From IMG/VR virus record IMGVR_UViG_2728369182_000007: DNA of 48,325 nucleotides; one strand, 5' to 3'. Position 1 is the stretch's first letter, and each line of letters begins with the position of its first letter. A model generated the notes under the pieces. That model worked only from the letters and a program-made list of their open reading frames with translations, did not search any database and was not told the origin of the DNA. This DNA comes from a virus (lineage: Duplodnaviria; Heunggongvirae; Uroviricota; Caudoviricetes). The translations under genes and the position numbers were made by a program. This document shows positions 5,995-47,927 of this stretch, one piece after another.

Positions 5995-6004
5995 NNNNNN
6001 NNNN
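5995..6004. other. assembly gap (10 N)
   Basis: run of N. Confidence 1.
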
Positions 6005-8143
6005 TGCGTTAATCCGGAACGATACCGACGCCGGATCGCCCTGCTGTCCCCGGGCATTTACCGCCCGGACCGTCAGCGTGTAACGCCCCAGCGCCAGCTG
6101 CCTGAAGCGGTAAGTGGTTTCCGCCGTCCGGGCCGTGCTGACCAGCCGCTCACTGCCGTCATCCGCTGTTACGGTCAGACGGAGCAGGAAGCTCACGCCC
6201 TTCACCACCTTCGGCGTGTCCCAGCGCGCCAGCACCTGATATTCCCCGCTGTCTGCGGTGACTTCGGCAGTCAGGTGCTGCACCGCTGGCGGCGTGACAC
6301 CATTCACCGTGCCGCTCTGGTCGCCGTCAAAGTGCGCTCCGTTATCCACGATGGCCTCTTTTTCCGGTACATGCTGCACGGCGGTGATGGCATACGCACC
6401 GTCATCGTTCTCCCGGATACTCACACAGCGGAACAGGCGCTGGCGCAGCGTCGGCAGCTTCAGCCCCCACACGCTGTATTCGGCAACGCCGTCAGGAATA
6501 CGGCTCACTTTCACCTTCACGCCGTCGGTGACGGACTGGACCTCCACGCTGACCGGATTCCCACTTCCGTCAACCAGGCTTATCAGCGTGGTGCCGGAGG
6601 ATGACAGCATGATTTCACGGTCGAGCGTCAGCGTCCGGGTCTGGCTGTTCACCGCCAGCACGCGACCACCGGTGCTGATACCGGCATAGTCATCATCACA
6701 GATTTCAATGACATCGCCCGGCACATGGCGAAGCCCTTCTGCGCCGACGCTGAAATCCACGGTCTGCGTTTCCAGCAGTTCTGTTTTAATCAGCCACAGC
6801 CCGGCGCGGTGTGCCTGCCCCCGACTGGTACAGCCAAAGGCATCCATCTTCGTGACGTTACGACCGTAACGGGCAATGGCCTGCGTGTCCTCCACAAGCT
6901 CTGTCGTCGTCTCCCAGCCGTTATCCGGGTCAATCCAGTTCACCTCAACGGCATTATGGCGGTCCTTCAGGGCGCTGAAGCTGTAGCGGAACGGCGCGCC
7001 ATCATCCGGCATCACCACATTACTGCGGTTATAGGTCCACACCTTATCCGACGGTCGGTCCTGCACGAACGTCAGCGTCTGCCCGTTCCATACCGGCATA
7101 CAGCGCATCGCCGAGCAGAAATCGCTGAGAACATCCCACGCCTTACGCTGTGTGGTCAGCCAGGCATTACAGGTGATGCGCGGCTCCGTGCCGCCAAAGC
7201 CGTCCGGCACTGACTGGTCGCAGTACTGGCCGATGACATACAGCGCCCATTTATCCACATCCGCCGCACCAAGACGTTTCCCCATGCCGTAGCGCGGATG
7301 GGTCAGCATATCCCACAGACACCAGGCCATGTTGTTGCTGTATGCTGGCTTAAACGTTCCGTCCCAGATACCGCTGTATTGCCGCGTCTGCGGGTTATAG
7401 TTCGACGGCACCTGCAGAATGCGCCCGCGCAGATGATAATTACGGCTCACCTGCTGGCTGCCGAACTGCTCCGAGTCCACCTGCACGCCGACCAGTGCCG
7501 TGTTCGGGTAGCACTGTTTCACATCGATAATTTCGGTGTATGACGACCAGAGCGTTTTGTTCTGCAGCTGGTCTGTGGTGCTGTCCGGCGTCATCCTGCG
7601 CATCCGGATATTAAACGGGCGCGGCGGCAGGTTATCCACCACCACCGAGGCCAGATACTGTGAAGTGGTTTTACCCTTAATGGTGATGTCTTTTTCCGTC
7701 ACCCAGCCACCGTTACGCTGTATCTGAACCAGCAGGCGGACTTCCGACGGATTCCGGTCACCCTTTGAGGTGGTTTCCACCAGTGCCTGCACACCGAAGG
7801 TAAAGCGCAGACGGTCAATGTTTGCCGACGTGATGGTCCGGGTGATCGGCGTGTCATATTTCACTTCTGTACCGAGCACCGTCTCGGAGCCGGAGGATTC
7901 AAATCCCTCCGGCGGTGTCTGCTCCTGCTCACCGGCCCGGAACACCACCGTGACGCCGAATATATTGGTATTCCCCTCACTGTCCAGCACCGGCGTACTG
8001 TTCAGCAGCACGCTTTTTAATCCATCCACCGGACCTTCAACCGGCCCTTCGCTGATGGCGTCTATCACGCTCAGCATCTGGGATGATTTCAGGTTGTCCT
8101 TCGCTTCGCGCGGGGTATGCCCCTTACTGCTGCCTTTACCCAT
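6005..8143 (-). CDS. J: host specificity protein J, N-terminal and central part (second copy), 3' end in gap
   Basis: N-terminus MGKGSSKGHTPREAKDNLKSSQMLSVIDAISEGPVEGPVDG... typical of lambda J; ends at N run. Confidence 0.85.
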
Positions 8144-8203
8144 TCCTCATGCTCCATAAACGATAAAACCGCCCGGAGGCGGTTTCACATAAAACATTTT
8201 GCA

Positions 8204-8898
8204 TCAGCGACCAATCACCACAACCTGACCACCATCNNNNNNNNNNNNNNNNNNNNNNNNNNNNNNNNNNNNNNNNNNNNNNNNNNNNNNNNNNNNNNNN
8301 ACCCCACGCGCATTTCACCGTACAGAACCGGCAGAACATTGCCCTGGGCAACCATGTTATCCAGTGAGGAGAAATAGGTGTTCTGTTTGCCGTTATCCGT
8401 TGTCTGTGTACGGGGAGTTCTGGCTTTCGGTGCCAGCATCTGCGCCACACCACCGAGCACCATACTGGCACCGAGAGAAAACAGGATGCCGGTCATACCA
8501 CCGGCCCCAATGGCTGCCCCCCATGCTGCAAGGGTGGCTCCGGCGGTAAAGAATGATCCGGCAATGGCGGCAGCCCCCAGGACAATCTGGAATACGCCAC
8601 CTGACTTGGCCCCGGCGACTCTGGGAACAATATGAATCACAGCGCCATCAGGCAGAGTCTCATGTAACTGCGCCGTTAACCCGGACGTGCTGACGTCCCG
8701 CCCGGCAATCCGTACCTGATACCAGCCGTCGCTCAGTTTCTGACGAAACACCGGGAGCTGTGTGGCCAGTGCGCGGATGGCTTCAGCCCCCGTTTTCACA
8801 CGAAGGTCGATGCGGCGGCCAAATCGTTGTAAATCCCCGTAAAGGCAGATGCGCGCCATGCCCGGTGACGCCAGAGGGAGTGTGTGCGTCGCTGCCAT
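8204..8898 (-). CDS. I: tail assembly protein I (contains 64-N gap)
   Basis: MAATHTLPLASPGMARICLYGDLQRFGRRIDLRVKTG... lambda I-like; Gly/Ala-rich membrane segment; stop TGA at 8204-8206 after gap. Confidence 0.8.
8237..8300. other. assembly gap (64 N)
   Basis: run of N. Confidence 1.
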
Positions 8899-9539
8899 TT
8901 GTCGGTATACCTCTCTCGTTTACTCAGTTGTTCAGGAATATGGTGCAGCAGCTCGCCGTCACCACAGTAAATAGCGGCATGATTCGGCACCGATGAACCA
9001 AAGCAGCACAGCAGCACATCGCCCGGCTGCGCCGCTGACAACGGCACCTGATACAGCCCTGTGGCCTCCAGATTATCAAGATAGAGATTCTGGCCGTTAC
9101 GCCACCAGTCATCCTCACGATGAAAGTCCGGCATCTCAGTCCCCGCCAGATGGTAAGCGTCCCGGAACAGCGTGTAACAGTCCGTCACCCCGTGCTCAAA
9201 GCGCCGCCCGGTGAGATGCGGCACACAGCGGAACTTATGAATCGCCCCCCGGCAGACCAGCCACCACGGCAAATCACTCTGCACCTGCAGCCGCCGGTCG
9301 GCCTCACTCAGCCAGGGCAGACCACCGGGATGACTGTGGACCAGCGCCACAATCTCACCCTGCATCTCTGCCTGCAGCCAGTCCTCCGGAGCCATCCGGA
9401 AATACGCCTCCGGCTCACCGGAGATATTCACGCAGGGAAAATATCTTTCCCCCTCCGGCGCTCTCACCACGAAGCCGCACGACTCCGCTGGCGCACATCG
9501 CCGGGCATGCGCCAGAATCGCTGATTCTGTCTCTGTCAT
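8796..9539 (-). CDS. K: tail assembly protein K (NlpC/P60 plus JAB/MPN-like)
   Basis: 247 aa with HSHP motif and conserved Cys/His; lambda K-like; overlaps I as in lambda. Confidence 0.85.
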   Translation of the reverse strand: MTETESAILAHARRCAPAESCGFVVRAPEGERYFPCVNISGEPEAYFRMAPEDWLQAEMQGEIVALVHSHPGGLPWLSEADRRLQVQSDLPWWLVCRGAIHKFRCVPHLTGRRFEHGVTDCYTLFRDAYHLAGTEMPDFHREDDWWRNGQNLYLDNLEATGLYQVPLSAAQPGDVLLCCFGSSVPNHAAIYCGDGELLHHIPEQLSKRERYTDKWQRRTHSLWRHRAWRASAFTGIYNDLAAASTFV

Positions 9540-9544
9540 GGGAT

Positions 9545-10251
9545 TTACTGCGAAAGTTTGTTAATGGAAAGGAAGCCGCCAAAGTTGCCGACGTTATTGN
9601 NNNNNNNNNAAACTTACAGCCGCTCAGGCATTTGCTGCATTTATCCTTCGTGATATCGGAAGTCGGCTGATCATATTCATCCGCGACCGCCGGACCGTGA
9701 TAACCGCACTCATCACCGCGATAGGTCCAGGTGCAGGTATTAGCCAGCATGATGCGCCCCGGAAAAACGGCACCATCCGTTTCCGTCGGTGTGGACAGTA
9801 CAAAGGAGGCACTGACCGCACTCAGTTCGCTGCACTGCTCGATGCGCCAGCGGCTGATCACCTCCTGCTCCGGATCGGCGTCGCTGTTTCCGTTGACGAA
9901 GTTCACCGCATCCAGAAAACGGGCGTAAACCTTACGCCTGACCACCGTTCCGCCGACCAGACTCTGCAGATCTTCCACCATCCCGGTGACCATACCGTAC
10001 AGGTTAGAAACCGTCAGCGTGGGGCGCGTACTGGTGCCTTTGCCATTCAGTTCAAAACTACTCCCCTGAATGGGATACGGCTGATACTGTCGCCCCTGCC
10101 AGGTGACCGGCTCACCTTTTTCGTTCTGCTCATTACAGAAAAAATAACGTTCTCCACCGACCTCTGTCAGATCGATTTCCCAGAGCACCACGCTGGCCGA
10201 CTGCTCCGCACGGGTGCATTCATTCAATGTTTCCTGCCGGATATCCTGCAT
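9545..10251 (-). CDS. L: minor tail protein L (contains 10-N gap)
   Basis: MQDIRQETLNECTRAEQSASVVLWEIDLTEVGG... lambda L-like; C-terminal CSKCLSGCKF Cys cluster precedes gap. Confidence 0.8.
9600..9609. other. assembly gap (10 N)
   Basis: run of N. Confidence 1.
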
Positions 10252-10580
10252 CAGTTCACCACCTGTTCAAACTCTGCGCTGAACTCAACACGCAGCATAC
10301 TGACCCGCGACGACCATTTTGCGCAGGTCACCTTTATCTGCCTGTAACCATAAGGCGGCGTCCACAGAAAGGCCTTCCAGCCCCCGTGCTCAGCCAGAAA
10401 CGACTCCAGCGCCGTGGCCTCCTCACGGGAGACAGACAGCGTCACGCTGTACGTTTTCAGGTCAGCGTTCAGCCCGGCAGGCGCACGCTGGGAATAGCCA
10501 TCACCAAAGCGCACCTCCCTGACGGAAGGAGCCGATGTCACATCCATCCCGGGTTTCACTTTCCAGCGGAAGGTTTTCAT
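10251..10580 (-). CDS. M: minor tail protein M
   Basis: 109 aa MKTFRWKVKPGMDVTSAPSVREVRFGDGYSQRAPAGLNADLKTYSVTL... lambda M-like. Confidence 0.85.
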   Translation of the reverse strand: MKTFRWKVKPGMDVTSAPSVREVRFGDGYSQRAPAGLNADLKTYSVTLSVSREEATALESFLAEHGGWKAFLWTPPYGYRQIKVTCAKWSSRVSMLRVEFSAEFEQVVN

Positions 10581-11300
10581 CGTCCACCTCCGGAGAACAG
10601 ACCACCATCGCGCATCTGTGCCTGGATTTCATCACGGGCACCCTTGCGGGCCATGTCATACACCGCCTTCATCATCTGTGGACCTGGCAGACCATTCGTA
10701 CCGTCGTTCTGAATCACCACGTTGTTGTTCTGCTCAAACCTGATACCCTCTGAACGCCGCATTTGCGCCGGACTTCCGGTGCCACCGACATAACCGCCGG
10801 TGGCATAGCCGCGCATCAGCCGGTAGAGATTTCCCACGCCAATCCGGCTGGTTGCCTCCTTCGTGAAGACAAATTCACCACGGTGAACAATCCCCGCTGG
10901 CTCATATTTGCCGCCGGTTCCCGTAAATCCTCCGGTTGCAAAATGGAGTTTCGCCGCAGCGGCCTGAATGGCTGTACCGCCTGACGCGGATGCGCCGCCA
11001 CCAACAGCCCCGCCAATAGCGCTGCCGATACTCCCGACAATCCCCACCATTGCCTGCTTAAGCAGAATTTCTGTCATCATGGACAGCACGGAACGGGTGA
11101 AGCTGCGCCAGTTCTGTTCACTGCCGGTCAGCATCGCCGCCATATTCTGCGCAATACCATCAAAGGTCTGCGTGGCAGCACTTTTAACCTGCGACATACT
11201 GTCCGTGGCACTCTCTTCCCACTCACTCCAGCCGGACTTCAGGCCTGCCATCCAGTTCCCGCGAAGCAGGTCTTCAGCCGCCCAGGTCTTTTTCTGCTCT
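10577..11300 (-). CDS. H: tail tape measure protein H, C-terminal fragment (5' end in gap)
   Basis: Gly-rich C-terminal region typical of lambda H C-terminus; upstream truncated by N run. Confidence 0.75.
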
Positions 11301-11310
11301 NNNNNNNNNN
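11301..11310. other. assembly gap (10 N)
   Basis: run of N. Confidence 1.
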
Positions 11311-11586
11311 CGTACCCAGCACCGTCTCGGAGCCGGAGGATTCAAATCCCTCCGGCGGTGACTGCTCCTGCTCACCTGCCCGGAACACCACCGTGACACC
11401 GGAGATATTGGTATTCCCCTCACTGTCCAGCACTGGCGTACTGTTCAGCAGCACACTTTTTAATCCGTCCACCGGACCTTCAACCGGCCCTTCACTGATG
11501 GCGTCTATCACGCTCAGTATCTGGGATGATTTCAGGTTGTCCTTCGCTTCGCGCGGGGTATGCCCCTTACTGCTGCCTTTACCCAT
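11311..11586 (-). CDS. J: host specificity protein J, N-terminal fragment (third copy)
   Basis: MGKGSSKGHTPREAKDNLKSSQILSVIDAISEGPVEG... then gap. Confidence 0.8.
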
Positions 11587-11646
11587 TCCTCACGCTCCAG
11601 AAACGACAAAACCGCCCGCAGGCGGTTTCACATAAAACATTTTGCA

Positions 11647-12318
11647 TCAGCGACCAATCACCACAACCTGACCACCATCCCCTTCGTCTGCCGTGCTGAT
11701 CTCCTGAGAAACCACACGTGACCCCACGCGCATTTCCCCGTACAGAACAGGCAGAACATTACCCTGGGCAACCATGTTATCCAGTGACGAGAAATACGTG
11801 TTCTGTTTGCCGTTATCTGTACTGGCTGCCGTGGGCGTCCTGGCTTTCGGTGCCAGCATCTGAGCCACACCGCCGAGCACCATACTGGCACCGAGAGAAA
11901 ACAGAATGCCGGTCATACCACCGGCACCAATGGCAGCCCCCCATGCTGCAAGGGTGGCTCCGGCGGTAAAGAATGATCCGGCAATGGCGGCTGCTCCCAG
12001 GACAATCTGGAATACACCACCTGACTTGGCCCCGGCGACTCTGGGAACAATATGAATCACAGCGCCGTCAGGCAGAGCCTCATGTAACTGCGCCGTTAAT
12101 CCGGACGTGCTGACATCCTGTCCGGCAATACGCACCTGATACCAGCCGTCGCTCAGTTTCTGACGAAACGCCGGGATCTGCATGGCCAGCGCCCGGATGG
12201 CTTCGGACCCCGTTTTCACTCGAAGGTCGATGCGGCGGCCAAATCGTTGTAAATCCCCGTAAAGGCAGATGCGTGCCATGCCCGGTGACGCCAGAGGGAG
12301 TGTGTGCGTCGCTGCCAT
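11647..12318 (-). CDS. I: tail assembly protein I (second copy)
   Basis: 223 aa, near-identical to copy at 8204-8898. Confidence 0.85.
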   Translation of the reverse strand: MAATHTLPLASPGMARICLYGDLQRFGRRIDLRVKTGSEAIRALAMQIPAFRQKLSDGWYQVRIAGQDVSTSGLTAQLHEALPDGAVIHIVPRVAGAKSGGVFQIVLGAAAIAGSFFTAGATLAAWGAAIGAGGMTGILFSLGASMVLGGVAQMLAPKARTPTAASTDNGKQNTYFSSLDNMVAQGNVLPVLYGEMRVGSRVVSQEISTADEGDGGQVVVIGR

Positions 12319-12959
12319 TTGTCGGTGTACCTCTCTCGTTTGCTCAGTTGTTCAGGAATATGGTGCAGCAGCTCGCTGTCACCACAGTAAATGGCGGCAT
12401 GATTCGGCACCGATGAACCAAAACAGCACAGCAGCACATCGCCCGGCTGTGCCGCTGACAACGGCACCTGATACAGCCCTGTGGCCTCCAGATTATCCAG
12501 ATAGAGATTCTGACCGTGACGCCACCAGTCATCCTCGCGATGAAAATCCGGCATCTCAATCCCCGCCAGATGGTAAGCATCCCGGAACAGCGTGTAACAG
12601 TCCGTCACCCCGTGCTCAAAGCGCCGCCCGGAAAGATGTGGCACACAGCGGAACTTGTGAATCGCCCCCCGGCAAACCAGCCACCACGGCAAATTACTCT
12701 GCACCTGCAGCCGCCGGTCAGCCTCACTCAGCCAGGGCAGACCACCGGGGTGGCTGTGGACCAGCGCCACAATCTCACCCTGCATCTCTGCCCGCAGCCA
12801 GTCCTCCGGTGCGATACGAAAATACGCCTCCGGCTCTGCGGAAATATTCACACAAGGGATATACCGCTCCCCCTCCGGCGTGCTTATCACGAAGCCGCAC
12901 GACTCCGCAGGCGCACACCGCCGGGCATGCGCCAGAATCGCTGATTCAGTCTGTGTCAT
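12216..12959 (-). CDS. K: tail assembly protein K (second copy)
   Basis: 247 aa, near-identical to 8796-9539. Confidence 0.85.
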   Translation of the reverse strand: MTQTESAILAHARRCAPAESCGFVISTPEGERYIPCVNISAEPEAYFRIAPEDWLRAEMQGEIVALVHSHPGGLPWLSEADRRLQVQSNLPWWLVCRGAIHKFRCVPHLSGRRFEHGVTDCYTLFRDAYHLAGIEMPDFHREDDWWRHGQNLYLDNLEATGLYQVPLSAAQPGDVLLCCFGSSVPNHAAIYCGDSELLHHIPEQLSKRERYTDKWQRRTHSLWRHRAWHASAFTGIYNDLAAASTFE

Positions 12960-13654
12960 AAANNNNNNNNNNNNNNNNNNNNNNNNNNNNNNNNNNNNNN
13001 NNNNNNNNNNNNGAACTTACAGCCACTCAGGCATTTGCTGCATTTATCCTTCGTGATATCGGACGTCGGCTGATCATATTCATCCGCGACCGCCGGACCG
13101 CTATAACCGCACTCATCGCCGCGATAGGTCCAGGTGCAGGTGTTGGCCAGCATGATACGTCCCGGAAAAACAGCGCCGTCCGTTTCCGTCGGCGTGGACA
13201 GTACAAAGGAGGCACTGACCGCGCTCAGTTCGCTGCACTGCTCGATGCGCCAGCGGCTGATCACCTCCTGCTCCGGATCGGCGTCACTGTTTCCGTTGAC
13301 GAAGTTCACCGCATCCAGAAAACGGGCGTAAACCTTACGCCGGACCACCGTTCCGCCGACCAGACTCTGCAGATCTTCCGCCATCCCGGTGACCATGCCG
13401 TACAGATTAGAGACTTTAAGCGTTGGCCTAGCACTGGCTCCTTTGCCGTTCATCTCAAATCCGCTTCCCTGAATGGGATAAGCCTGATACTGCCGCCCCT
13501 GCCAGGTGACTGGTTCACCTTTTTCGTTCTGCTCATTACAGAAGAAATAACGATCTCCGCCGACCTCTGTCAGATCAATTTCCCAGAGCACGACCAGCGC
13601 GGATTGCTCCGTTTTAGTGCACTCATTGAGTGTTTCCTGCTGTATATCCTGCAT
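12956..13654 (-). CDS. L: minor tail protein L (second copy, 3' end in 50-N gap)
   Basis: MQDIQQETLNECTKTEQSALVVLWEIDLTEVGG...; gap begins at same position of L as in copy 1. Confidence 0.8.
   Translation of the reverse strand: MQDIQQETLNECTKTEQSALVVLWEIDLTEVGGDRYFFCNEQNEKGEPVTWQGRQYQAYPIQGSGFEMNGKGASARPTLKVSNLYGMVTGMAEDLQSLVGGTVVRRKVYARFLDAVNFVNGNSDADPEQEVISRWRIEQCSELSAVSASFVLSTPTETDGAVFPGRIMLANTCTWTYRGDECGYSGPAVADEYDQPTSDITKDKCSKCLSGCKFXXXXXXXXXXXXXXXXXL
12963..13012. other. assembly gap (50 N)
   Basis: run of N. Confidence 1.
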
Positions 13655-27890: not shown

Positions 27891-28097
27891 GAAACGATAT
27901 ATACAGAAAGGAAAGCACTCTATCCAACAAACCACCCACAGTTGATCGGAATAAAAGCAGAGTGCTTATGAATGATCGCCTGCCCGAAGGTTAGTATTTC
28001 TGCACAGCAATTTTGCAAAAAAAGGCGATCATTCATAACTTAAACGTCTTTCAGTCACTCCGGGATTTCCCATCATCGCAGACTGAAAGACTCTGAC

Positions 28098-28172
<75 letters not shown>

Positions 28173-28175
28173 ATA

Positions 28176-28251
<76 letters not shown>

Positions 28252-28253
28252 AC

Positions 28254-28330
28254 TGGACCGCCACCGGGGACTCGAACCTCGCACTCTCAACTTAAAGGGT
28301 TGACGCTCTTTCCTGATGAGCTAGTGGCGG
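28254..28330 (-). tRNA. tRNA-like gene with anticodon loop CCUUUAA (apparent anticodon UUU, C33)
   Basis: Manual fold: acceptor CCGCCAC/GTGGCGG, D-arm, anticodon stem TCAAC/GTTGA, T-loop TTCGAGT, CCA; non-canonical C at position 33. Confidence 0.5.
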
Positions 28331-28331
28331 T

Positions 28332-28407
28332 TGGTGGCCCTTGCTGGATTTGAACCAGCGACCTGGCGATTATGAGTCGCTCGCTCTCACCACTGAGCTA
28401 AAGGGCC
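28332..28407 (-). tRNA. ileZ: tRNA-Ile2 (anticodon CAU, ileX/ileZ-like)
   Basis: Manual fold; sequence GGCCCTTTAGCTCAGTGGTGAGAGCGAGCGACTCATAATCGCCAGGTCGCTGGTTCAAATCCAGCAAGGGCCACCA closely resembles E. coli ileX as recalled. Confidence 0.75.
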
Positions 28408-28529
28408 ATATGCGGAATAATACTTATGCCAGTTTAGCTCTGCAATACCCTACCCTGATTAAATCCTGCATATTGGCCTACACATGATAAAAGAATCTGA
28501 GCGGTCAACAGAAAGTTACTCAGGCAATA

Positions 28530-29249
28530 TTAACGAACTCTGACTACATTAATTTCAAAGTCATCAATCTGCCCGCTATTAAGTATAACGAATGCAGAAC
28601 TCCCATTACTGTACGATTTCGATAAAACCAGACGATCATCATAGCGTGCAAGAACGTAATACCAAGTATTCTCATAGTGGATCGTCTGATATTCCCTCTT
28701 AAACTGGGGTTTATACCAACCGGCAATAAGAGAGAATGTCCAGAAATAAATCATGAATCCAGCCATAATAAACTCAATTCGGTGATGGCGAATAAAAGAC
28801 ACTTCCGAAAAACATTTGACTGAAATAAGTCTTCTTCCTGACCTGACAAAAAGCGTAATTGTAAAGGCAGCAATAACACAAAAAAACAGCACATCTGGCT
28901 CAACGTGCTGATGAATTACCGAAAACTCCAGAACAGGCGGAATAAAAAGCAGCAATATTGCCAGAAAAAGTCTGATAAAACTCAAATTCTGTATATTGTT
29001 TTTTTGTTTTATGCCTAAAAAGAAAACAATACCTACTCCCCATCCAGTAAGGAATATAACGATAACGCTCACAGCATAAAACAAACTTCGGGCCACATCA
29101 TCAACGCCAACCCCGACGATCCACCATGGAAAGCCATAGTAAAAGGAAGTCCCCCATCCATAGAAATAAGCGCTTCCCCATCCAAGACAGCCCATATAAG
29201 CAATAAAAAGTGAAGAGTTCCTCAGCAGAGTGCTGTCATCCATACCCAT
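28530..29249 (-). CDS. AT-rich polytopic membrane protein of unknown function (239 aa), cargo gene between tR' and tRNA cluster
   Basis: ORF with 4-5 predicted TM segments rich in W/Y/F/G; local GC visibly lower than flanks; no family recognised. Confidence 0.55.
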   Translation of the reverse strand: MGMDDSTLLRNSSLFIAYMGCLGWGSAYFYGWGTSFYYGFPWWIVGVGVDDVARSLFYAVSVIVIFLTGWGVGIVFFLGIKQKNNIQNLSFIRLFLAILLLFIPPVLEFSVIHQHVEPDVLFFCVIAAFTITLFVRSGRRLISVKCFSEVSFIRHHRIEFIMAGFMIYFWTFSLIAGWYKPQFKREYQTIHYENTWYYVLARYDDRLVLSKSYSNGSSAFVILNSGQIDDFEINVVRVR

Positions 29250-29382
29250 CTCTCTAACAATTTTAAAACATCAACTCATCTTACATAACAAAGGAGATTC
29301 CATGCAGTCAAGAGACTTCAGAGCAGGAGAAACTCATTGCGCAATCGCCATCACGTTTAACGTTATGCACCGCTTTCCAGAT

Positions 29383-29408
29383 ATAAAAAACCCGCTCGAT
29401 GGCGGGCT
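29383..29408 (-). terminator. late terminator tR' downstream of Q
   Basis: CCCGC-TCGAT-GGCGGG hairpin followed by T6 on minus strand, ~85 bp downstream of Q stop. Confidence 0.65.
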
Positions 29409-29439
29409 GTAAAAATCCTTCTAACGTCAGGCATAAAAC

Positions 29440-29480
29440 GCCCATCGTTAGAGCAAATTTACCACAGATTCGGGAAAAAT
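29440..29480 (-). promoter_or_regulatory. candidate late promoter pR' / qut region
   Basis: Minus-strand TTGATT ... 16 nt ... TAAATT between Q stop and tR'; would make a short 6S-like transcript. Confidence 0.3.
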
Positions 29481-29488
29481 CAACAACA

Positions 29489-30310
29489 CTATCGCGTTAC
29501 CCTCTTTAACTGCCGCTCCGCCCATGCCTCTTCAATGTCAAACCGAACCACCAACGTATCGTAAAAGCGTTTCACTGATTTTTTCCACGTATCAAGCGTG
29601 ATAGCACTCGTCACTTTGCGTATGGCATTAAATGCCTCCGTTGATGGTAGTCTTTCATAGCCCCGACCGCCACAACGCTGGCAGTTCCTGATTACAGGCA
29701 TACCCCGTTTTTCCGACTCTTCACGATGAATGGCAACACCACGCCCACGGCAGTCTTTACAGGCAGTGGAAATCTCCCCCTTCCCTTTACATTCAGGACA
29801 AGAAACTTTCACCACCTCCCGGATTTTTTTCCATTCTTCCCAGTAAGACGGATACACACCTTTCGTACACTTTGCCCATACTGGCGGCTTGCCATCCGGA
29901 TACTGAACCTTGTTTGTAAAAACTTCGCTTTCAATAAATTTTTCCCCTCGGCAACAGGGGCACTGCTTTTTACTCGCTGCGCTGCGGGCATAATCCTCAA
30001 AAGCATACGAAGCCATAATGCGCATCACTGCCGGTTTTATTTCTGCCGGAAGTTTTCTTAACGCCGCCACGCGATCGCACTGACTTAATGCATAATCTGC
30101 CAGTAATTCTGTTGCCCGCGCCCTGTCATTCATACTAATACCCATTTTCCCCAGGAACGCAGAAAATCCCATCTCAGCCCGGTTTTGTGTCATACCCTGC
30201 GCAGCCATCACATCAGTGATGCTCAGCGCATCTTTTGACGTCGAGACGGATGCATCAGTCAGGCCTGGCGATTTTGGGGAATAGTATTTCGGTAAATCTT
30301 CCAGTCTCAT
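29489..30310 (-). CDS. late antiterminator Q-like protein
   Basis: 273 aa with multiple CxxC zinc-binding pairs, directly upstream of pR'/tR' and downstream of rusA as in DLP12/Qin prophages. Confidence 0.75.
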   Translation of the reverse strand: MRLEDLPKYYSPKSPGLTDASVSTSKDALSITDVMAAQGMTQNRAEMGFSAFLGKMGISMNDRARATELLADYALSQCDRVAALRKLPAEIKPAVMRIMASYAFEDYARSAASKKQCPCCRGEKFIESEVFTNKVQYPDGKPPVWAKCTKGVYPSYWEEWKKIREVVKVSCPECKGKGEISTACKDCRGRGVAIHREESEKRGMPVIRNCQRCGGRGYERLPSTEAFNAIRKVTSAITLDTWKKSVKRFYDTLVVRFDIEEAWAERQLKRVTR

Positions 30311-30684
30311 TTTTGGACCTGCCCGTCATGCATTATTTCGTAAATCTTCACGCCCAACCGACCACCAGGAACGAGCTGACCGCGCACAATATTGATTTCA
30401 TCAAACTGCTCGTCGTCTATAAGTAGTCCGGCATGCGTCAGCGCATCCAGTGGTGCTTTCAGGATATTGTCCAGGTCACGACGGCGCTTATCCGGTGGCT
30501 CTGCAATCACCTTTATCGCCAGCCTTCCGGACAGGTTTGATTTTAACCGCTGCCGGCGAACAATTAGCGCCACATCACGGCGATAACGCTCACCGACTTT
30601 TGATACAAAATATGTGTTGCCACGACGTCGCCAGTAAGTATTCACCGTCGGCGGATAAGGCAAAACAAACTCAATACGCATCAA
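30307..30684 (-). CDS. rusA: Holliday junction resolvase RusA
   Basis: 125 aa, MMRIEFVLPYPPTVNTYWRRRG... with conserved acidic residues; classic nin-region position. Confidence 0.85.
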   Translation of the reverse strand: MMRIEFVLPYPPTVNTYWRRRGNTYFVSKVGERYRRDVALIVRRQRLKSNLSGRLAIKVIAEPPDKRRRDLDNILKAPLDALTHAGLLIDDEQFDEINIVRGQLVPGGRLGVKIYEIMHDGQVQK

Positions 30685-30693
30685 TAACCTCTT

Positions 30694-31743
30694 TTACCCA
30701 AGCACGCCGGTTGCAAAGGCGTGATCAAGAAAACGAAAAATTAAATCAACCTGGGAACCATGCTTTTCTTCGAACGCCAGCGGATCCGCATGAAGTTCGT
30801 TGTGATGTTCCCGGCACAACGGTAGCGTGAAAATATCGTGGGCCTTTGTTCCCATCCCTCCCTGACCGTGACCAATCAGGTGATGGGGATCGTCGGCTGG
30901 CTGACCACAACACGCACACGGCTGTGTCTTCACCCAGCGCGTATATTTCTCATTTACCCAACGGCGACGTTTAGGTCGCCTCATGAAAGATTCCGGAGAG
31001 TCCGGATCAACGGCAATGCTGACCACCGCCTTTTCCAGTGGTGGGTTCTGTTGCTGGTGGAAGTGAGGCAACGGCGCAAGATTTTTTGTGCGCTGCTTTA
31101 GTATGCTGGTGGCGGTCTGCTCTCCCGGTACGATGTCGCTTTCGCGGTACACCGCGCGGATTTTTTCCGCACGTAACCCCAGAGAACGACGTAATACTGC
31201 CTCCGGAAGCGCGTCCGCCACTTGATTGCAGACCGCCCACCAGGATAATTCAGCCAGCGATAACTCCCGCTCCTGCGTGCCATTCATTGCATGGCGTATG
31301 ACGTCAATCATCCATGCTGCCAGGTTTTGTTGAGCAAGTTGCTCAAGTGATTCGGATGTCTGGTCACGCAGCTGGTTATCGCAGTGCCAGCACAACACCA
31401 TCGCGCCGGTGCCGTAACGATGTATGACGGTTTCACTGTGATGATAGTCACCATGAGGCCACTGGCAGGATTTGACATGACGCAACAGCCAGTCAGACAG
31501 TGCACCAGCGCCGCCAGCAGCACGAATCACACGCTCATTGCTGAAAAACCGCAGTAATGATTTATCCTCCGCCAGCGGCTGGCGAACGGCAGGGACGATG
31601 CCGGACGGCAGACCACGCATGCTTTTCGGTTCCGGCTCCACCAGCACTCGAGGGTTATGGAATACCTGCATGGATTCACGGCCTGGTTTAAGGACCACCA
31701 GCCCAAGTTCCGGTACCGGAACAGGTCGAAGTAATACCCGCAC
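30694..31743 (-). CDS. YdfU-like DUF968 protein
   Basis: 349 aa, C-terminal ...CACCGQPADDPHHLIGHGQGGMGTKAHD...PLCREHHNELH... motif; size and position match Qin ydfU. Confidence 0.75.
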   Translation of the reverse strand: MRVLLRPVPVPELGLVVLKPGRESMQVFHNPRVLVEPEPKSMRGLPSGIVPAVRQPLAEDKSLLRFFSNERVIRAAGGAGALSDWLLRHVKSCQWPHGDYHHSETVIHRYGTGAMVLCWHCDNQLRDQTSESLEQLAQQNLAAWMIDVIRHAMNGTQERELSLAELSWWAVCNQVADALPEAVLRRSLGLRAEKIRAVYRESDIVPGEQTATSILKQRTKNLAPLPHFHQQQNPPLEKAVVSIAVDPDSPESFMRRPKRRRWVNEKYTRWVKTQPCACCGQPADDPHHLIGHGQGGMGTKAHDIFTLPLCREHHNELHADPLAFEEKHGSQVDLIFRFLDHAFATGVLG

Positions 31744-31744
31744 G

Positions 31745-32020
31745 TTACCTCCAGATGCGTTGCTGGAATGTGCGGGACGGACGCGGTGGGCGCTCGGAGT
31801 ACGGCAGCCTGACGTAGATTATCCAGTGACGATAATCGAGGCTGAGGGCTTTCTTAACCTCGTATCCACGCCTGCGGTAACACTGAATTATCCATTCAGC
31901 CTGCTCTTCAGTGCATGGAGGATGCTGGAACCAGTCTGATTTGAATGCGTGAAAACGCCGTCCGCACCTGCTGGCAAAGACGGCAGAATCATTAGAATTG
32001 TGTAATTTGGTATCGTGCGC
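31745..32020 (-). CDS. hypothetical small protein (Rem-like position)
   Basis: Start placed at MAHDTKLH so the upstream terminator hairpin is outside the CDS; the six-frame ORF extends to 32152. Confidence 0.5.
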   Translation of the reverse strand, partial: AHDTKLHNSNDSAVFASRCGRRFHAFKSDWFQHPPCTEEQAEWIIQCYRRRGYEVKKALSLDYRHWIIYVRLPYSERPPRPSRTFQQRIWR

Positions 32021-32093
32021 CATCGGTTGTCTCTGCTGGCGCAGCAGGTGCCAGTTGTTCAGGCTGGCGTGCGAATTGTAAACCAGAATGCCA

Positions 32094-32121
32094 GGAAAAA
32101 ACAAAACCCGCCGAAGCGGGT
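32094..32121 (-). terminator. rho-independent terminator downstream of hok
   Basis: CCCGC-CGAA-GCGGG hairpin followed by TTTTGTTTTTT on minus strand. Confidence 0.6.
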
Positions 32122-32190
32122 TAAGTGCGGGTGCGTTGAGGATGCCTGACACATCAGAGGTGGCGAGGGATTTCTCCCCCGCCTGGTCTC

Positions 32191-32346
32191 TTACTCCTCA
32201 GGTTCGTAAGCTGTGAAGACAGCGACCTCCGTCTGGCCGGTTCGGATTCGTACCTCGCAGAGGTCTTTCCTCGTTACCAGTGCCGTCACTATGACGGTTA
32301 AACAGATGACGATCAGGGCGATTAACATCGCCTTTTGCTGCTTCAT
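32191..32346 (-). CDS. hok: Hok/Gef family type I toxin (HokD/RelF-like), 51 aa
   Basis: MKQQKAMLIALIVICLTVIVTALVTRKDLCEVRIRTGQTEVAVFTAYEPEE, Hok family signature with single TM and conserved Cys. Confidence 0.85.
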   Translation of the reverse strand: MKQQKAMLIALIVICLTVIVTALVTRKDLCEVRIRTGQTEVAVFTAYEPEE

Positions 32347-32583
32347 AGCCTGCTTCTCCTTGCCTTTCGGCACGTAAGAGGCTAACCTACATGTGTTCAG
32401 CATGGATTGAGCCTCAGATTAATGTTAAGCGTCTTGCAGGACGCGTAATGTTAACTGGGGCTTTTCTCTATCTGCCTTTTGGTGTTCATGCCTGAGGCAG
32501 ATAGCCTCAAGCACCCGCAGCAATTCTACTTAACTCACGTCACCTCGCCAATATGAAATCAATCAGAAAGGTGATCCATAAAA

Positions 32584-33270
32584 TCACTCCTTCTCTTCTT
32601 TTCCGTAGTGGAGTTGGCCAATTTTGATAAGAGGGCGCCCCTGAGATTTGCGGTGTAGATTGGTATCGCGCAGAGAATACACACAGCCACAATATTCCTG
32701 CTGATAGAATTTTTCGCGCTTGCTGATTTCAATCATACGGGACGAGCCGCCCTGCTTGCGCCAGTTATAATCCCAGTACACCATACCCGGATAATGCGCA
32801 ACAGCTCGCCGCCCACACTCGTTAACCTGCTGCATATTTTTCCAGCGTGAAATGCCCAGTGAACTGCTGATCACACTGAAACCATTTTCAGCAGCGTACA
32901 ACGCTGTCCGCTCAAAACGCATGTCAAAACACATGGTACAACGGATCCCCCTCTCAGGCTCCCATTCCATTCCTTTGGCACGTTCAAACCAGTTGTCGGT
33001 GTCGTAATCAGCATCGATAAACGGCACGCCGTGTTGTTCAGCAAAGCGAATATTTTCATCCTTACGAATTAAATACTCTTTCTGAGGATGAATGTTCGGG
33101 TTGTAGAAAAAGATGGTGTAGTCGATTCCCGAGGCCTGAAGCGCCTCCATCACTTCACCGGAACATGGAGCACAGCAAGAGTGCAGTAGTAGTTTGTTTG
33201 CCCCGTTTGGGAGCTCCAATTTAGGCCGTTTGAAATCAGCAATAGTCATAAATATTTTTATTGGGGTCAT
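32584..33270 (-). CDS. DUF208 / QueH-like protein (putative epoxyqueuosine reductase)
   Basis: 228 aa with N-terminal [14 protein letters not shown] motif and further conserved Cys ([16 protein letters not shown]); family assignment from memory. Confidence 0.5.
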
Positions 33271-33423
33271 GAAAATAGCACAGAGTGTAGCATCAGAGCA
33301 GGGCTATCGGGAATATATGTCTAAATCTGGTAATATCTGGTTTTGACGCAAAGCGGACAACCACGCTGGCTCTACCCTGCGCCATGAAAATGTCAATTCA
33401 CATCTGAACTAATGCTCTTTAAT

Positions 33424-33849
33424 CTAGTAACGTCTAAAATACCTAACATTTCCTTGATAAAATGCCAGTACACGCTGCATAGCTTCGCTCTTCCGGCACT
33501 CGCGACAGATTATATTCAGGCGCCTGTCGTAGCGGCGTATTTCGCCGTCTGGTAACGACCAGATAAGGTCCGGATCAACCGCAGATGGTTTATTCAGCTT
33601 TGCCCTTGAGAGCTTTTTACGGGCATTTTGCCAGTCCTTACGCGCCTGTTCAGACGGGAATAACCCGTAACCAGAGTTGTATACATCGCCACTGGCAACC
33701 AGCTCTCTGGCCAGAACGCTCATCAGATATCTTGTTGCCCCAGTTTTAGCTTCCAGTTGTCGTAACGTCTCGCGCCCACTCTGGCGTACGAGTTCAAGAA
33801 CCTGCCCTTTAATTTTTTCCCGCTCTTCTTGTGTAAAAACTTTTGCCAC
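33424..33849 (-). CDS. hypothetical protein (141 aa), repeated at 46191-46613
   Basis: ORF conserved in both nin regions. Confidence 0.5.
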   Translation of the reverse strand: MAKVFTQEEREKIKGQVLELVRQSGRETLRQLEAKTGATRYLMSVLARELVASGDVYNSGYGLFPSEQARKDWQNARKKLSRAKLNKPSAVDPDLIWSLPDGEIRRYDRRLNIICRECRKSEAMQRVLAFYQGNVRYFRRY

Positions 33850-33889
33850 AAGCCCTCCTGAAAATTACCTCATGACCAGAAATTAACAC

Positions 33890-34274
33890 TTACCCCCTGA
33901 AGCCCGGCGGAATTTCGTTATCCGGTTCAGAAATATGATTCACACAACGCTGGTTGTTCGTGCCGCTTACCGGGAGCAGCCAGGGGTTTTCAAAATTCCG
34001 GTCCGGTCCAAAAAACGTCGTCGCTCGCTGAACAAATTCCGTTCCCGTTTTCCCGGTAGCCGCCAGGTATCTTGCGTAACGCCTCACACCATCCAGCATG
34101 GCCTCTGGTGGCACCCCCTCGCGTAATCTGGCCTTCCAGGCACTGAAAGCGGATTTCTTCGGGTTTGCCCCAGCACGCAACGGGTATTCCCGCCAGACCT
34201 GTTCGAACACATCCGGATAATCCACTCGTCCCACAGGCTGCCCGGTGTTTTCCGGGACTACCCGATCGGCTTCC
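33890..34274 (-). CDS. C-terminal fragment of putative replication protein (copy of 46654-47040), truncated by gap
   Basis: Near-identical to the C-terminus of the 333-aa protein at 46654-47655; upstream end in N run. Confidence 0.5.
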
Positions 34275-34284
34275 NNNNNNNNNN
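34275..34284. other. assembly gap (10 N) joining nin-region fragment to a lysis cassette
   Basis: run of N; gene content either side is not contiguous in a phage. Confidence 1.
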
Positions 34285-34374
34285 CCCCGCACACTCGCGC
34301 AGAGGAGTCTCCCTGTCGGGCTGCGGTCTCTGTTAATGAGGGAATATAGCGACGATACGGCGCATCAACAAAAC

Positions 34375-40246: not shown

Positions 40247-40272
40247 GGAGTTTACTCACATCTGACAAAATC

Positions 40273-40294
40273 AATATAAACAGCCCCTCCGGAG
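40273..40294 (-). terminator. rho-independent terminator (minus strand)
   Basis: CAGCCCCTC-CGGAG-AGGGGCTG hairpin followed by TTTATATTGATTTT on minus strand. Confidence 0.55.
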
Positions 40295-40693
40295 AGGGGC
40301 TGGAGAGTGGCGCTATGTGCCATTGCATGGTGCCGGGTGCCTCCCGGTGAATTCAGTACCAGCACCTGAATCCGCGATTATCCCATATACCTACTCGCTG
40401 ATTGCCCCTCCGCACAGGGGGATTCACCATGCCAGTTTCTTTTAACAAACTCCCCGCAAACCAGACAACAGTCAACCGCCTGAATTGTGAAGTATTTAAA
40501 AATTTCTCCCGCTAACTGATACCCGGCTAACAGTCTGGCGTTTTCTTTTTCAGCAACGGGAAAGCAACAACCACCACACCCGCCACCAGCACACCGTCAG
40601 CCAGCACTGACATTATCCGGCTGCTGCAATGCCACTCACAAAAACAGTAAGCAATCACTTTTTACCGTAACAAGTGATAATCCAGATATGTAT

Positions 40694-41160: not shown

Positions 41161-41234
41161 CGCGCTGTACTGGATTCGAACCAGTGACCGATTGCTTAGA
41201 AGGCAATTGCTCTGTCCGGCTGAGCTAACAACGC
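41161..41234 (-). tRNA. tRNA-Arg (anticodon UCU), CCA not encoded
   Basis: Manual fold: acceptor GCGTTGT/ACAGCGC, anticodon stem ATTGC/GCAAT, loop CUUCUAA, T-arm CACTGG-TTCGAAT-CCAGT. Confidence 0.7.
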
Positions 41235-41247
41235 TGAATACCGATAA

Positions 41248-41327
41248 TGGACCGCCATCGGGGACCCGCCCCCGCACCAACAACCCTGTTATCGTGTCGT
41301 CTGCTCTTCCTGATAAGCTAATGGCGG
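41248..41327 (-). pseudogene. degenerate tRNA-like sequence (homologue of tRNA at 28254-28330)
   Basis: Shares acceptor and D-arm with the copy-1 tRNA but no pairable anticodon stem or canonical T-loop found by manual folding. Confidence 0.4.
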
Positions 41328-41334
41328 TTTGTGA

Positions 41335-41410
41335 TGGTGGCCCTTGCTGGATTTGAACCAGCGACCTGGCGATTATGAGTCGCTCGCTCTCACCACTGAG
41401 CTAAAGGGCC
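41335..41410 (-). tRNA. ileZ: tRNA-Ile2 (anticodon CAU), second copy
   Basis: Identical or near-identical to 28332-28407. Confidence 0.75.
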
Positions 41411-44087: not shown

Positions 44088-44160
44088 CTGTTTTCTCTGC
44101 TGGCGCAGCAGGTGTCAGGTGTTCAGGCTGACGTGCGAATTGTAAACCAGAATGCCAGGA

Positions 44161-44190
44161 AAAAACAAAACCCGCCGAAGCGGGTTAAGT
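44161..44190 (-). terminator. rho-independent terminator downstream of hok (second copy)
   Basis: Same hairpin and U-tract as 32094-32121. Confidence 0.6.
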
Positions 44191-44254
44191 GCGGGTGCGT
44201 TGAGGATGCCTGACACATCAGAGGTGGCGAGGGATTTCTCCCCCGCCTGGTCTC

Positions 44255-44410
44255 TTACTCCTCAGGTTCGTAAGCTGTGAAGACAGCGACCTCCGTCTGG
44301 CCGGTTCGGATTCGTACCTCGCAGAGGTCTTTCCTCGTTACCAGTGCCGTCACTATGACGGTTAAACAGATGACGATCAGGGCGATTAACATCGCCTTTT
44401 GCTGCTTCAT
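44255..44410 (-). CDS. hok: Hok/Gef family type I toxin (second copy)
   Basis: Nucleotide sequence identical to the hok CDS at 32191-32346 over the compared stretch; ATG at 44408-44410. Confidence 0.8.
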   Translation of the reverse strand: MKQQKAMLIALIVICLTVIVTALVTRKDLCEVRIRTGQTEVAVFTAYEPEE

Positions 44411-44668
44411 AGCCTGCTTCTCCTTGACCTTTCGGTCCGTAAGAGGCTAATCTCTATGTGTCGCATAGATATGGCCTCAGATTAATGTTAAGCGTCTTGC
44501 AGGACGCGTAATGTTAACTGGGGCTTTTCTCTATCTGCCTTTTGGTGTTCATGCCTGAGACAGATAGCCTCAAGCACCCGCAGTCATTCTACTTAACTAA
44601 GATTTCCCCGCAAACCGTTTTTGTCCGGCACAGTAAATATCCAACTAAACCAATGGCGTTCGCTGTAT

Positions 44669-44848
44669 TTACCGCCAGTATTCAATGCACATGACCGCCA
44701 TGAACACCCCTAAAAAAAGGGCATTTATATATCCAAATATTAATATCAAAACATCAACTTTTTCCATATACCTTGCTGTGAAGATGATGGGCATACATGA
44801 TACGAACAACCAGAACGCAACAAACAAAAACTGCAATGCGTTTTTCAT
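44669..44848 (-). CDS. small two-TM membrane protein (59 aa), AT-rich
   Basis: ATG at 44846-44848 preceded by AGGAGG; MKNALQFLFVAFWLFVSCMPIIFTARYMEKVDVLILIFGYINALFLGVFMAVMCIEYWR. Confidence 0.5.
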   Translation of the reverse strand: MKNALQFLFVAFWLFVSCMPIIFTARYMEKVDVLILIFGYINALFLGVFMAVMCIEYWR

Positions 44849-46653: not shown

Positions 46654-47927
46654 TTACCCCCTGAAGCCCGGCGGAATTTCGTTATCCGGTTCAGAAATAT
46701 GATTCACACAACGCTGGTTGTTCGTGCCGCTTACCGGGAGCAGCCAGGGGTTTTCAAAATTCCGGTCCGGTCCAAAAAACGTCGTCGCTCGCTGAACAAA
46801 TTCCGTTCCCGTTTTCCCGGTAGCCGCAAGGTATCTTGCGTAACGCCTCACGCCATCCAGCATGGCCTCTGGTGGCACCCCCTCGCGTAATCTGGCTTTC
46901 CAGGCACTGAAAGCGGATTTCTTCGGGTTTGCCCCGGCACGCAACGGGTATTCCCGCCAGACCTGTTCGAACACATCAGGATAATCCACTCGTCCCACAG
47001 GCTGCCCGGTGTTTTCCGGGACTACCCGATCGGCTTCCCGCTGAATGGCGGAATCGGCTTCAGGCTGCTGAAGTTGGTGTGATTGCTCCTGCCTTGCGGT
47101 CATCACCTGCTGCACAGCGCCCGAATCGGCTTTCAGCGCATACGCTGAATCGGCTTCCGGTGTCGTGCCTGCTGGCTGACCAAGATTGACGGTCTGAACA
47201 TCCCCTGCCTGGTTCGTGGCGTTTTTTACGCCATGGACCATAGTGTNNNNNNNNNNGGGCTGGCCAGGAGTGACGGTCTGAACATCCCCTGCCTGGTTCG
47301 TGGCGTTTTTTACGCCATGGACCATAGTGTTTTGATCTTCTTGATCTGTATCTTTATCTGTATCTTTATCTGTCGTGACTCGTCGTGACATGTGCGTGAC
47401 ATTTCGTGACGCGCCGTGACAATCGCCATTTTGTTCCCGCTTTCTTTCCCTCTCTCGCTGCGCCCTCTTGCGCTCTGCAGGAGATTTTGCGGTTTGCGAA
47501 ATATTGCCGTTGTCCTCTTTAAGCACCTGGCGTTTTTCCCATCCAGTGATTAAATCACCATCAAGTACCCGCCCCTGCATCNNNNNNNNNNCGGAGATTT
47601 TGCGGTTTGCGAAATATTGCCGTTGTCCTCTTTCAGCACCTGGCGTTTTTCCCATCCAGTGATTAAATCACCATCAAGTACCCGCCCCTGCATCGTCTGC
47701 AAAATTGAATCAATTACCTCTTCTGTCACGTCGAGCGCACTTGCCAAATCTTCTGTCGTGACATCAATGTGACCTCGCGTGACATTTCGTGACGCGCTCA
47801 CCAGGAGGTGGATATACACTGCCATCACTGTTGCAATTGGCTGCCCTGACACCCTGGCAATTGTTCGCCACTTAGGGTCATTTGGCATGTCATGCCATAA
47901 TCTGAGCCAGGCGTTAGCCATACTCAC
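46654..47927 (-). CDS. putative phage replication initiator / replisome organiser (split by two 10-N gaps)
   Basis: N-terminal MSMANAWLRLWHDMPNDPKWRTIARVSG... region; internal iteron arrays; gaps at 47247-47256 and 47582-47591 are flanked by duplicated sequence. Confidence 0.4.
47247..47256. other. assembly gap (10 N) flanked by direct duplicate of about 50 bp
   Basis: run of N; ctgaacatcccctgcctggttcgtggcgttttttacgccatggaccatagtgt present on both sides. Confidence 1.
47373..47420. repeat. iteron-like array: five CGTGAC motifs phased at 10 bp
   Basis: tCGTGACtcgtCGTGACatgtgCGTGACatttCGTGACgcgcCGTGAC; preceded by tandem tctttatctgta repeat at 47345-47372. Confidence 0.6.
47582..47591. other. 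assembly gap (10 N) flanked by direct duplicate of about 110 bp
   Basis: 47468-47581 repeats 47592-47705 almost exactly. Confidence 1.
47756..47792. repeat. second iteron-like array: four (C)GTGAC motifs phased at 10 bp
   Basis: tCGTGACatcaatGTGACctcgCGTGACatttCGTGAC plus inverted GTCACG at 47726-47731. Confidence 0.55.

Follow-up and report, generated by a model that had tools for sequence, protein, structure and literature searches.

Two probable hok/mok/sok cassettes of the hokD/hokW type in lambdoid prophage DNA, with a variable tail in their Sok RNAs

The best-described relatives of the locus considered here are a plasmid system and a prophage system. The hok/mok/sok (parB) locus of plasmid R1 is plasmid-borne and acts as a post-segregational killer, and R1 hok/sok also excludes phage T4. 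The hokW-sokW locus of Sakai prophage 5 (Sp5; Stx2 phage VT2-Sakai) functions as a toxin-antitoxin pair and promotes the release of phage when induced, with partial data on 3' processing, Sok instability and RNase III cleavage. SokW was seen by Northern analysis and is an antitoxin made from its own promoter (Takada et al. 2021, Toxins 13:796, PMC8621323), and the promoter-less sokW mutant of the same study carries the change TAACCTA to GAGCCGG. The defining fold-back features of hok mRNAs are taken here from Le Rhun et al. 2022 (PMC9841398).

The window, the whole stretch of 48,325 nucleotides analysed here (IMG/VR record IMGVR_UViG_2728369182_000007; Caudoviricetes), contains two copies of such a locus, called copy A and copy B. 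We give a probability of roughly 0.9 to the reading that both copies are complete hok/mok/sok type I toxin-antitoxin cassettes of the hokD/hokW type, each a moron that a lambdoid prophage carries in its nin-equivalent region. What the analysis shows is that the sequence elements are there and conserved, that the expected pairings are predicted, and that there is identity to a locus validated by experiment.

Identification and anatomy of the two cassettes

Two 51-aa Hok-family open reading frames (ORFs), the same in nucleotide and in protein sequence, lie on the minus strand at the positions given by an earlier note on this DNA, which had left the strand unstated. Both match Pfam HOK_GEF (PF01848) over the full length of the profile (E=1.2e-23), and the Hok ORF matches PHROG 251, "MokW-like host killing" (2.8e-33).

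32191-32346, minus strand: hok (HokD) ORF of copy A, 51 aa (HOK_GEF, PHROG 251, RefSeq hokD annotation)
44255-44410, minus strand: hok ORF of copy B, same as copy A (sequence comparison)

Rfam RF01794 (hok/sok-locus), which models the hok mRNA leader though the family is named "sok", matches on the hok strand over its full length (model 1-157) with 120.5 bits at copy A and 106.7 bits at copy B; since these scores exceed the gathering score of 59, the two-copy observation is far beyond chance. Over 651 bp around copy A, identity is 100% to the locus annotated "hokD: type I toxin-antitoxin system toxin HokD" beside QueH in IHE3034, UPEC 26-1 and many others. Copy A is matched in 4741 of 5426 complete E. 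coli genomes (median 2 and maximum 11 copies per genome), and its region matches 102 phage records, in which it goes under the names MokW, HokD or "gef homolog". For the leader of copy B, identity is 100% to hokD loci of other strains and at least 99% in 641 E. coli records. The identity of the cassette is already known and the element is ordinary; identification alone adds little, as the exact sequence carries the hokD annotation in hundreds of genomes. Genome annotation gives only the 51-aa coding sequence, and the full regulatory anatomy (promoters, tac, ucb, mok, Sok and fbi) is now placed on coordinates.

The Tyr47 codon of hok lies in a UACG motif (GCUUACGAA; 32205-32213 and 44269-44277, minus strand), which is the context of A-to-I editing by TadA. 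According to the literature, such sites in hokB, hokC, hokD and hokE undergo editing that turns the Tyr codon into one for Cys; no tRNA-like hairpin appeared in the local fold at this codon.

The transcription units of the two hok genes are delimited by the following elements.

32523-32551, minus strand: hok promoter of copy A, TTGGCG-17-TAGAAT (consensus scan; position homologous to the hokC and Sp5 hokW promoters)
44586-44614, minus strand: hok promoter of copy B, TTTGCG-17-TAGAAT, with a -35 box of the same type as Sp5 hokW (sequence comparison)
32099-32516, minus strand: full-length hok mRNA of copy A, about 418 nt, with an approximate 3' end past the terminator U-run (Rfam start and terminator)
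44163-44579, minus strand: full-length hok mRNA of copy B, about 417 nt, with tac at 44568-44579, ucb at 44520-44526 and fbi at 44193-44205 (Rfam 106.7 bits, fold)
32096-32122, minus strand: intrinsic terminator of copy A (scan for hairpin and T-run)
44160-44186, minus strand: intrinsic terminator of copy B (scan for hairpin and T-run)

The -10 box of the copy A hok promoter is 6 nt upstream of the 5' end of the RF01794 match, with the predicted +1 at G32516; the copy B hok promoter fell below the threshold of the generic sigma-70 consensus scan and was missed by it. From the predicted +1 (32516 and 44579) to the hok AUG, the transcribed leader measures 170 nt in copy A and 169 nt in copy B. 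The leader of 240-260 bp previously reported for this DNA thus corresponds to the intergenic distance (237 and 258 bp), of which only about 170 nt is transcribed leader, the remainder being hok promoter and spacer. The hok RBS, GGAG, is intact 9 nt before the hok AUG. The strong terminators that had been noticed after each hok were found in both copies as a GC-rich hairpin and T-run, about 70 nt past the stop: a 7-bp, 5-GC hairpin with a UUCG loop is followed by the T-run (32122-32105 and 44186-44169, minus strand).

For the elements within the mRNA, conservation was read from 80 viral-contig loci encoding the same Hok protein, which reduce to 58 distinct modules. Those of copy A are listed below, numbered from the predicted +1.

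32505-32516, minus strand: tac (translational activator element), GGGUGCUUGAGG, mRNA nt 1-12 (predicted folds; invariant in 58 modules)
32468-32504, minus strand: 5' stem-loop, mRNA nt 13-49 (predicted fold; compensatory change)
32457-32463, minus strand: ucb, or anti-SD box, AAGCCCC, nt 54-60 (predicted folds; entropy 0.04)
32412-32415, minus strand: mok Shine-Dalgarno (SD) sequence GAGG, nt 102-105, 8 nt before the mok AUG (invariant in 58 modules)
32129-32141, minus strand: fbi (fold-back inhibitory element), CCUCAACGCACCC, nt 376-388 (partner of tac in predicted folds, MFE and centroid)

In the predicted MFE and centroid structures of both copies, the full-length mRNA is closed by pairing of tac with fbi (nt 1-12 with nt 376-388). 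The full-length MFE is -175.9 kcal/mol for copy A (z=-8.0 against shuffles) and -172.8 kcal/mol for copy B (z=-8.2), the latter likewise with tac-fbi closed and the SD sequestered; in both copies the mok SD is held by ucb (GCCCC), with an unpaired probability of about 0. The earlier note had ascribed fold-back elements and Sok to a Hok/Gef type I toxin and had proposed folding of the leader. That description is supported by the family models, by homologous loci that are annotated or have been studied in experiments, and by the predicted structures, with fold-back elements predicted in both copies at z of about -8, and the inverted repeat that it singled out (ctatctgcc at 32468-32476 and ggcagatag at 32496-32504) is helix 13-22/40-49 of the hok mRNA.

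Shorter RNAs fold differently. At 75 nt, nascent RNA is predicted to pair tac with ucb, which is the Rfam consensus stem, and at 110 nt the copy A RNA forms a metastable hairpin in which tac pairs with nt 19-29. R1, run as a control in the same folding script, gave tac-fbi closure and SD sequestration alike. The MFE of 3'-truncated RNA remains closed, with no spontaneous open form; because the R1 positive control behaves in the same way, this result reflects a limit of the software and is uninformative. When the tac/ucb pairing is enforced, the open form lies 1.7 kcal/mol (copy A) and 2.6 kcal/mol (copy B) above the MFE, and the mok SD then pairs with dcb (the downstream CCUC box), as published. 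Helix 114-126/364-376 of the copy A MFE is not claimed, being 89% paired with many unpaired cells across relatives.

The two copies differ in mok, the AUGs of which (32403 in copy A, 44466 in copy B) were placed by transfer of the K-12 mokC coordinates.

32191-32403, minus strand: mok ORF of copy A, 70 codons, in frame with hok as in K-12 mokC (aligned to the annotated mokC start)
44407-44466, minus strand: mok ORF of copy B, 19 codons, with its UGA overlapping the hok AUG (AUGA) (ORF and alignment)

Relative to copy A, mok of copy B is frameshifted by indels of -2 and +1. Its type is found in 9 of 65 viral loci, and most relatives have the 70-codon in-frame mok of copy A. Since mok of R1 is in another frame and translation past the hok start is not required there, mok of copy B is compatible with coupling, and copy B, judged from its sequence, is probably functional.

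Opposite the mok start, both copies carry a putative antisense gene on the plus strand.

32360-32388, plus strand: Sok promoter of copy A, TTGCCT-17-TAACCT (contains the -10 box mutated in sokW; hexamers conserved in 58 modules)
44424-44453, plus strand: Sok promoter of copy B, TTGACC-18-TAATCT (sequence comparison)
32395-32471, plus strand: predicted Sok antisense RNA of copy A, about 77 nt, with a 16-nt single-stranded 5' tail, a long hairpin and a U-rich 3' end (K-12 SokC mapping)
44460-44534, plus strand: predicted Sok antisense RNA of copy B, about 75 nt, with a 14-nt 5' tail unlike that of copy A and an identical hairpin body (K-12 SokC mapping)

A search for a plus-strand promoter and a short antisense RNA had been suggested, and candidates for both were located in both copies through homology to SokC and sokW. 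The Sp5 leader is identical to copy A at this position; the mutated sokW -10 box maps exactly to 32383-32389, the wild-type primers YO-421/422 map to 32364-32415, and the sokW Northern probe YO-592 matches 32395-32424 exactly. From these matches we take TTGCCT-17-TAACCT as the Sok promoter of copy A. The generic sigma-70 consensus scan returned no plus-strand promoter at either copy. We rejected this missing match as proof that no Sok promoter exists: the hexamers score 7-8 of 12, and the -10 box of copy A is the one mutated in sokW. By our own count, the R1 sok promoter hexamers would also fail the scan threshold. Both Sok promoter hexamers are conserved in all 58 distinct modules, and the predicted fold of Sok is stable in both copies (copy A, -36.2 kcal/mol, z=-6.2; copy B, z=-5.6).

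Conservation of the fold-back elements and variation of the Sok tail

Among the 58 distinct modules, tac, ucb, both SD sequences and fbi are invariant, the tac/fbi pairing is intact in 58 of 58, and the tac/ucb helix is 100% paired, yet invariant. Compensatory change is visible in the 5' stem-loop, where pair 15/47 changes from A-U to G-C in four sequences, and in the Sok hairpin, with three compensated pairs. For tac/fbi and tac/ucb, within-family covariation is uninformative because the pairs never vary among these close relatives. Invariant pairs prove nothing, and diverged loci from species-representative genomes were therefore compared instead. There, tac GGGUGC..GAGG of Escherichia goes with fbi CCUC..GCACCC, GAGAC of Kluyvera with UCUC, and GGGCGC of Photorhabdus and Pantoea with GCGCCC. 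Between lineages, two tac/fbi positions (tac 4 and 12) are thus compensated, by U:A to C:G and G:C to A:U.

One short stretch behaves differently. Nucleotides 106-122 of the hok mRNA, 17 nt that surround the mok start codon and are targeted by the 5' tail of Sok, have a pi of 0.31, as against 0.010 at hok third-codon positions, 0.066 in the 3' UTR and 0 at tac and the mok SD. The hypervariable tail lies at 32395-32411 and 44460-44474 on the plus strand and is seen also in loci L005-L084; at least 10 versions of it occur on a conserved promoter and hairpin. Copies A and B differ at 15 module positions, 8 of which fall in nt 106-122 (17 of 420 columns; binomial P = 3.6e-8). The predicted energies of the tail-target duplexes are -27.8 and -22.9 kcal/mol for the cognate pairs and -12.0 and -6.7 kcal/mol for the non-cognate pairs. 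Co-resident intact copies differ in the tail in all five other multi-copy genomes, an underpowered comparison whose outcome, with some 10 tail types, chance alone would give about 20% of the time (a rough estimate).

Thisted et al. (1994, EMBO J) reportedly found that Sok recognises hok mRNA by its single-stranded 5' leader, which would make nt 106-122 a natural specificity determinant. We tentatively suggest, at somewhat less than even odds, that the Sok tail and its target form a fast-diversifying "address" that keeps the hok/sok cassettes of a polylysogen orthogonal, each Sok controlling only its own hok. If the variation reflects selection for orthogonality among co-resident prophages, it would (i) explain how E. 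coli tolerates up to 11 cassettes per genome and (ii) bear on antisense strategies meant to trigger Hok. Our literature search, with Steif & Meyer 2012 (hok mRNA family) outside its scope, found no description of Sok-tail diversity, and the newest Hok survey left Sok and mok unanalysed. The hypervariable Sok tail and target on a near-invariant cassette are possibly a new point.

Proposed mechanism, prophage context and alternative readings

Modelled on R1 hok/sok and Sp5 hokW-sokW, the cassettes may operate as follows. A weak constitutive promoter would yield a stable hok mRNA of about 418 nt, in which the 5' tac is kept in a metastable hairpin during synthesis; in the full-length mRNA, tac would pair with fbi while ucb masks the mok SD, allowing neither translation nor Sok binding. 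Slow 3' trimming would then take off fbi, so that tac pairs with ucb and the mok SD becomes free, and ribosomes on mok would arrive at the hok start and make the 51-aa membrane toxin. In the quiescent prophage, an abundant and unstable Sok (75-77 nt, plus strand) would pair by its 5' tail with the mok translation-initiation region, stopping translation of mok and hence of hok and marking the duplex for RNase III. Once Sok synthesis ends, whether because the prophage is induced, the element lost or host transcription shut off, Hok would be made and the inner membrane depolarised. The mRNA processing, the instability of Sok and the physiological trigger we infer for both cassettes from these models. 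Phage exclusion and prophage retention are possible further roles. Since hok shares its strand with the nin and Q genes around it, antiterminated early transcription would pass through hok in sense orientation, with possible interference at the Sok promoter; we infer this from gene orientation.

The borders of the cassette are sharp. Entropy is below 0.5 inside and above 1.3 beyond about -30 and about +420, and phage BLAST matches begin and end at the same places, which gives a cassette of about 450 bp from promoter to terminator (about 32098-32546 in the window) in varied neighbourhoods. Sharp borders and different neighbourhoods argue for a moron spread by recombination among lambdoid prophages. 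The earlier note's proposal that the module is mobile within nin regions therefore holds in the sense of a discrete promoter-to-terminator moron redistributed by recombination, and not in the sense of self-mobility, the cassette encoding no mobility function. The differing upstream neighbours on which that proposal was based are as described: QueH (Pfam 1.1e-65) at copy A and a 59-aa hydrophobic ORF at copy B.

32584-33270, minus strand: QueH epoxyqueuosine reductase, a moron directly upstream of copy A, a tRNA-modification enzyme in a tRNA-carrying phage
44669-44848, minus strand: 59-aa strongly hydrophobic ORF upstream of copy B, absent from the annotation of the matching RefSeq genome, in which some 600 bp bear no feature
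28101-28407, minus strand: cluster of four tRNA genes downstream of a Q antiterminator gene
41161-41410, minus strand: cluster of two tRNA genes downstream of a Q antiterminator gene
40272-40461, minus strand: Rfam STnc100 sRNA (132 bits, full length) between the tRNA/Q region and a SASA-family esterase gene of the second prophage

A PHROG search with the 59-aa ORF gave no match. The two tRNA clusters have a 91-nt stretch in common (95% identity). Elsewhere, at 4136-13302, several direct repeats of 250-300 nt with 92-95% identity (among them 7869-8168/11312-11611, 9600-9899/13003-13302 and 4468-4767/6339-6638) suggest duplicated blocks in a part of the first prophage that probably encodes structural/tail proteins. 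The replication-type gene of the second prophage has a 113-bp tandem duplication relative to IHE3034 (102-nt copies at 47480-47581 and 47593-47694, 99% identical); 113 bp cannot be divided by 3, and the gene seems to be broken into two ORFs, 46654-47655 and 47550-47927. It is probably a pseudogene, which suggests that this prophage is cryptic.

Whether the window holds two neighbouring copies in nature is a separate matter, and we consider the chances evenly divided that the two-copy picture is an artefact of assembly, either through one locus duplicated by mis-scaffolding or through two unrelated contigs joined. Positions 28050-34274 are 99.98% identical to IHE3034, the match ending at a run of 10 N (34276-34285), and from 34286 onwards it is lysis regions of other genomes that agree with the window, at 100% identity. 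The flanks of the run thus match different places at 99.98-100%, the join is spanned in 0 of 5426 complete E. coli genomes, and the prophage segments on either side may have been joined by scaffolding or masking. The 12-kb distance between the two copies, and with it their tandem arrangement, is for this reason provisional. Against an artefact stand the occurrence of both variants independently in many genomes, the common presence of two or more copies per genome (median 2, up to 11), the 15 module positions at which the copies differ and their different flanks. The last two points rule out copy B as an assembly duplicate of copy A, and only the adjacency of the two loci is in doubt, not their existence in the assembly.

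An inactive, decayed state of one copy or of both, comparable to that of the hok loci on the K-12 chromosome (sequence intact or nearly so, the capacity to kill or be regulated lost), is unlikely. Such decay has precedents: K-12 hokD keeps only SD, coding sequence and 3' UTR, similar truncated related loci exist (L090, L127), and the chromosomal hok loci tested by Pedersen & Gerdes gave no post-segregational killing, as cited in a preprint (bioRxiv 10.1101/2025.08.07.668861). Copy B moreover departs from the majority type in its frameshifted mok, 18-nt Sok promoter spacer and weaker hok -35 box, and its prophage may be cryptic given the 113-bp duplication. Against such decay, neither copy lacks a regulatory element and these elements do not vary; copy A corresponds to hokW-sokW, which is functional; the leader of copy B is conserved at 99% or more in 641 records; and Sp5 hokW, with the same -35 type as copy B, is transcribed. 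The relic outlined in the earlier note would have lacked any antisense promoter and had a disrupted hok RBS; in both copies the hok RBS is intact and an antisense promoter is present.

Still less probable is that copy A acts through a 70-aa in-frame Mok-Hok fusion ("MokW"), so that mok would serve as a second start site instead of coupling translation to hok: in copy A, as in most relatives, there is indeed an in-frame mok whose 70-aa protein contains the whole of Hok, phage records call this ORF MokW and K-12 mokC is likewise in frame, but a fusion cannot be required when R1 mok is in the +1 frame and copy B and eight other loci have a separate 19-codon mok, and Takada 2021 saw toxicity from the 51-aa hokW ORF alone (PMC8621323).

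Comparison with known systems

Read as complete hok/mok/sok cassettes, the two copies are closest to Sp5 hokW-sokW, which is of the same cassette type and likewise lies in a lambdoid prophage region upstream of Q, with a module identity to the window of about 96%. Sp5 and copy A have identical leaders over the Sok promoter, Sok tail and mok start, and copy B differs from Sp5 in its Sok tail and short mok; the Sp5 hok -35 region, on the other hand, resembles copy B. HokW ends in ...FVDYESEK, whereas the window copies end in ...FTAYEPEE, and Sp5 is without the GC-rich terminator hairpin after fbi, homology stopping directly past fbi.

The R1 locus has the same architecture, predicted folding pathway and Sok promoter position. 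Its Hok is 44% identical and its mok is in the +1 frame with 70 aa, and the tac/fbi pair reads GGCGC/GCGCC in R1 and GGGUGC/GCACCC in the window, a compensatory difference.

Alignment to the chromosomal hok loci of K-12, as the earlier note had advised, separates two cases. The leader of hokC/mokC/sokC (gef) is homologous to that of the window, with the same tac and ucb, an in-frame mok and an annotated SokC; the HokC protein is about 82% identical, the SokC hairpin is 18 nt shorter, and the 3' end of hokC, including fbi, is disrupted beside IS186 (L099). In contrast, hokD (relF) of the Qin prophage has the same Hok protein, hok SD, 3' UTR, fbi and terminator as the window, and is fused behind relBE with the whole leader (tac, ucb, mok and sok) lost. 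Since K-12 hokD shares only SD, coding sequence and 3' UTR with the window, and the window leader resembles that of hokC, the locus that K-12 has in truncated form is intact in the window.
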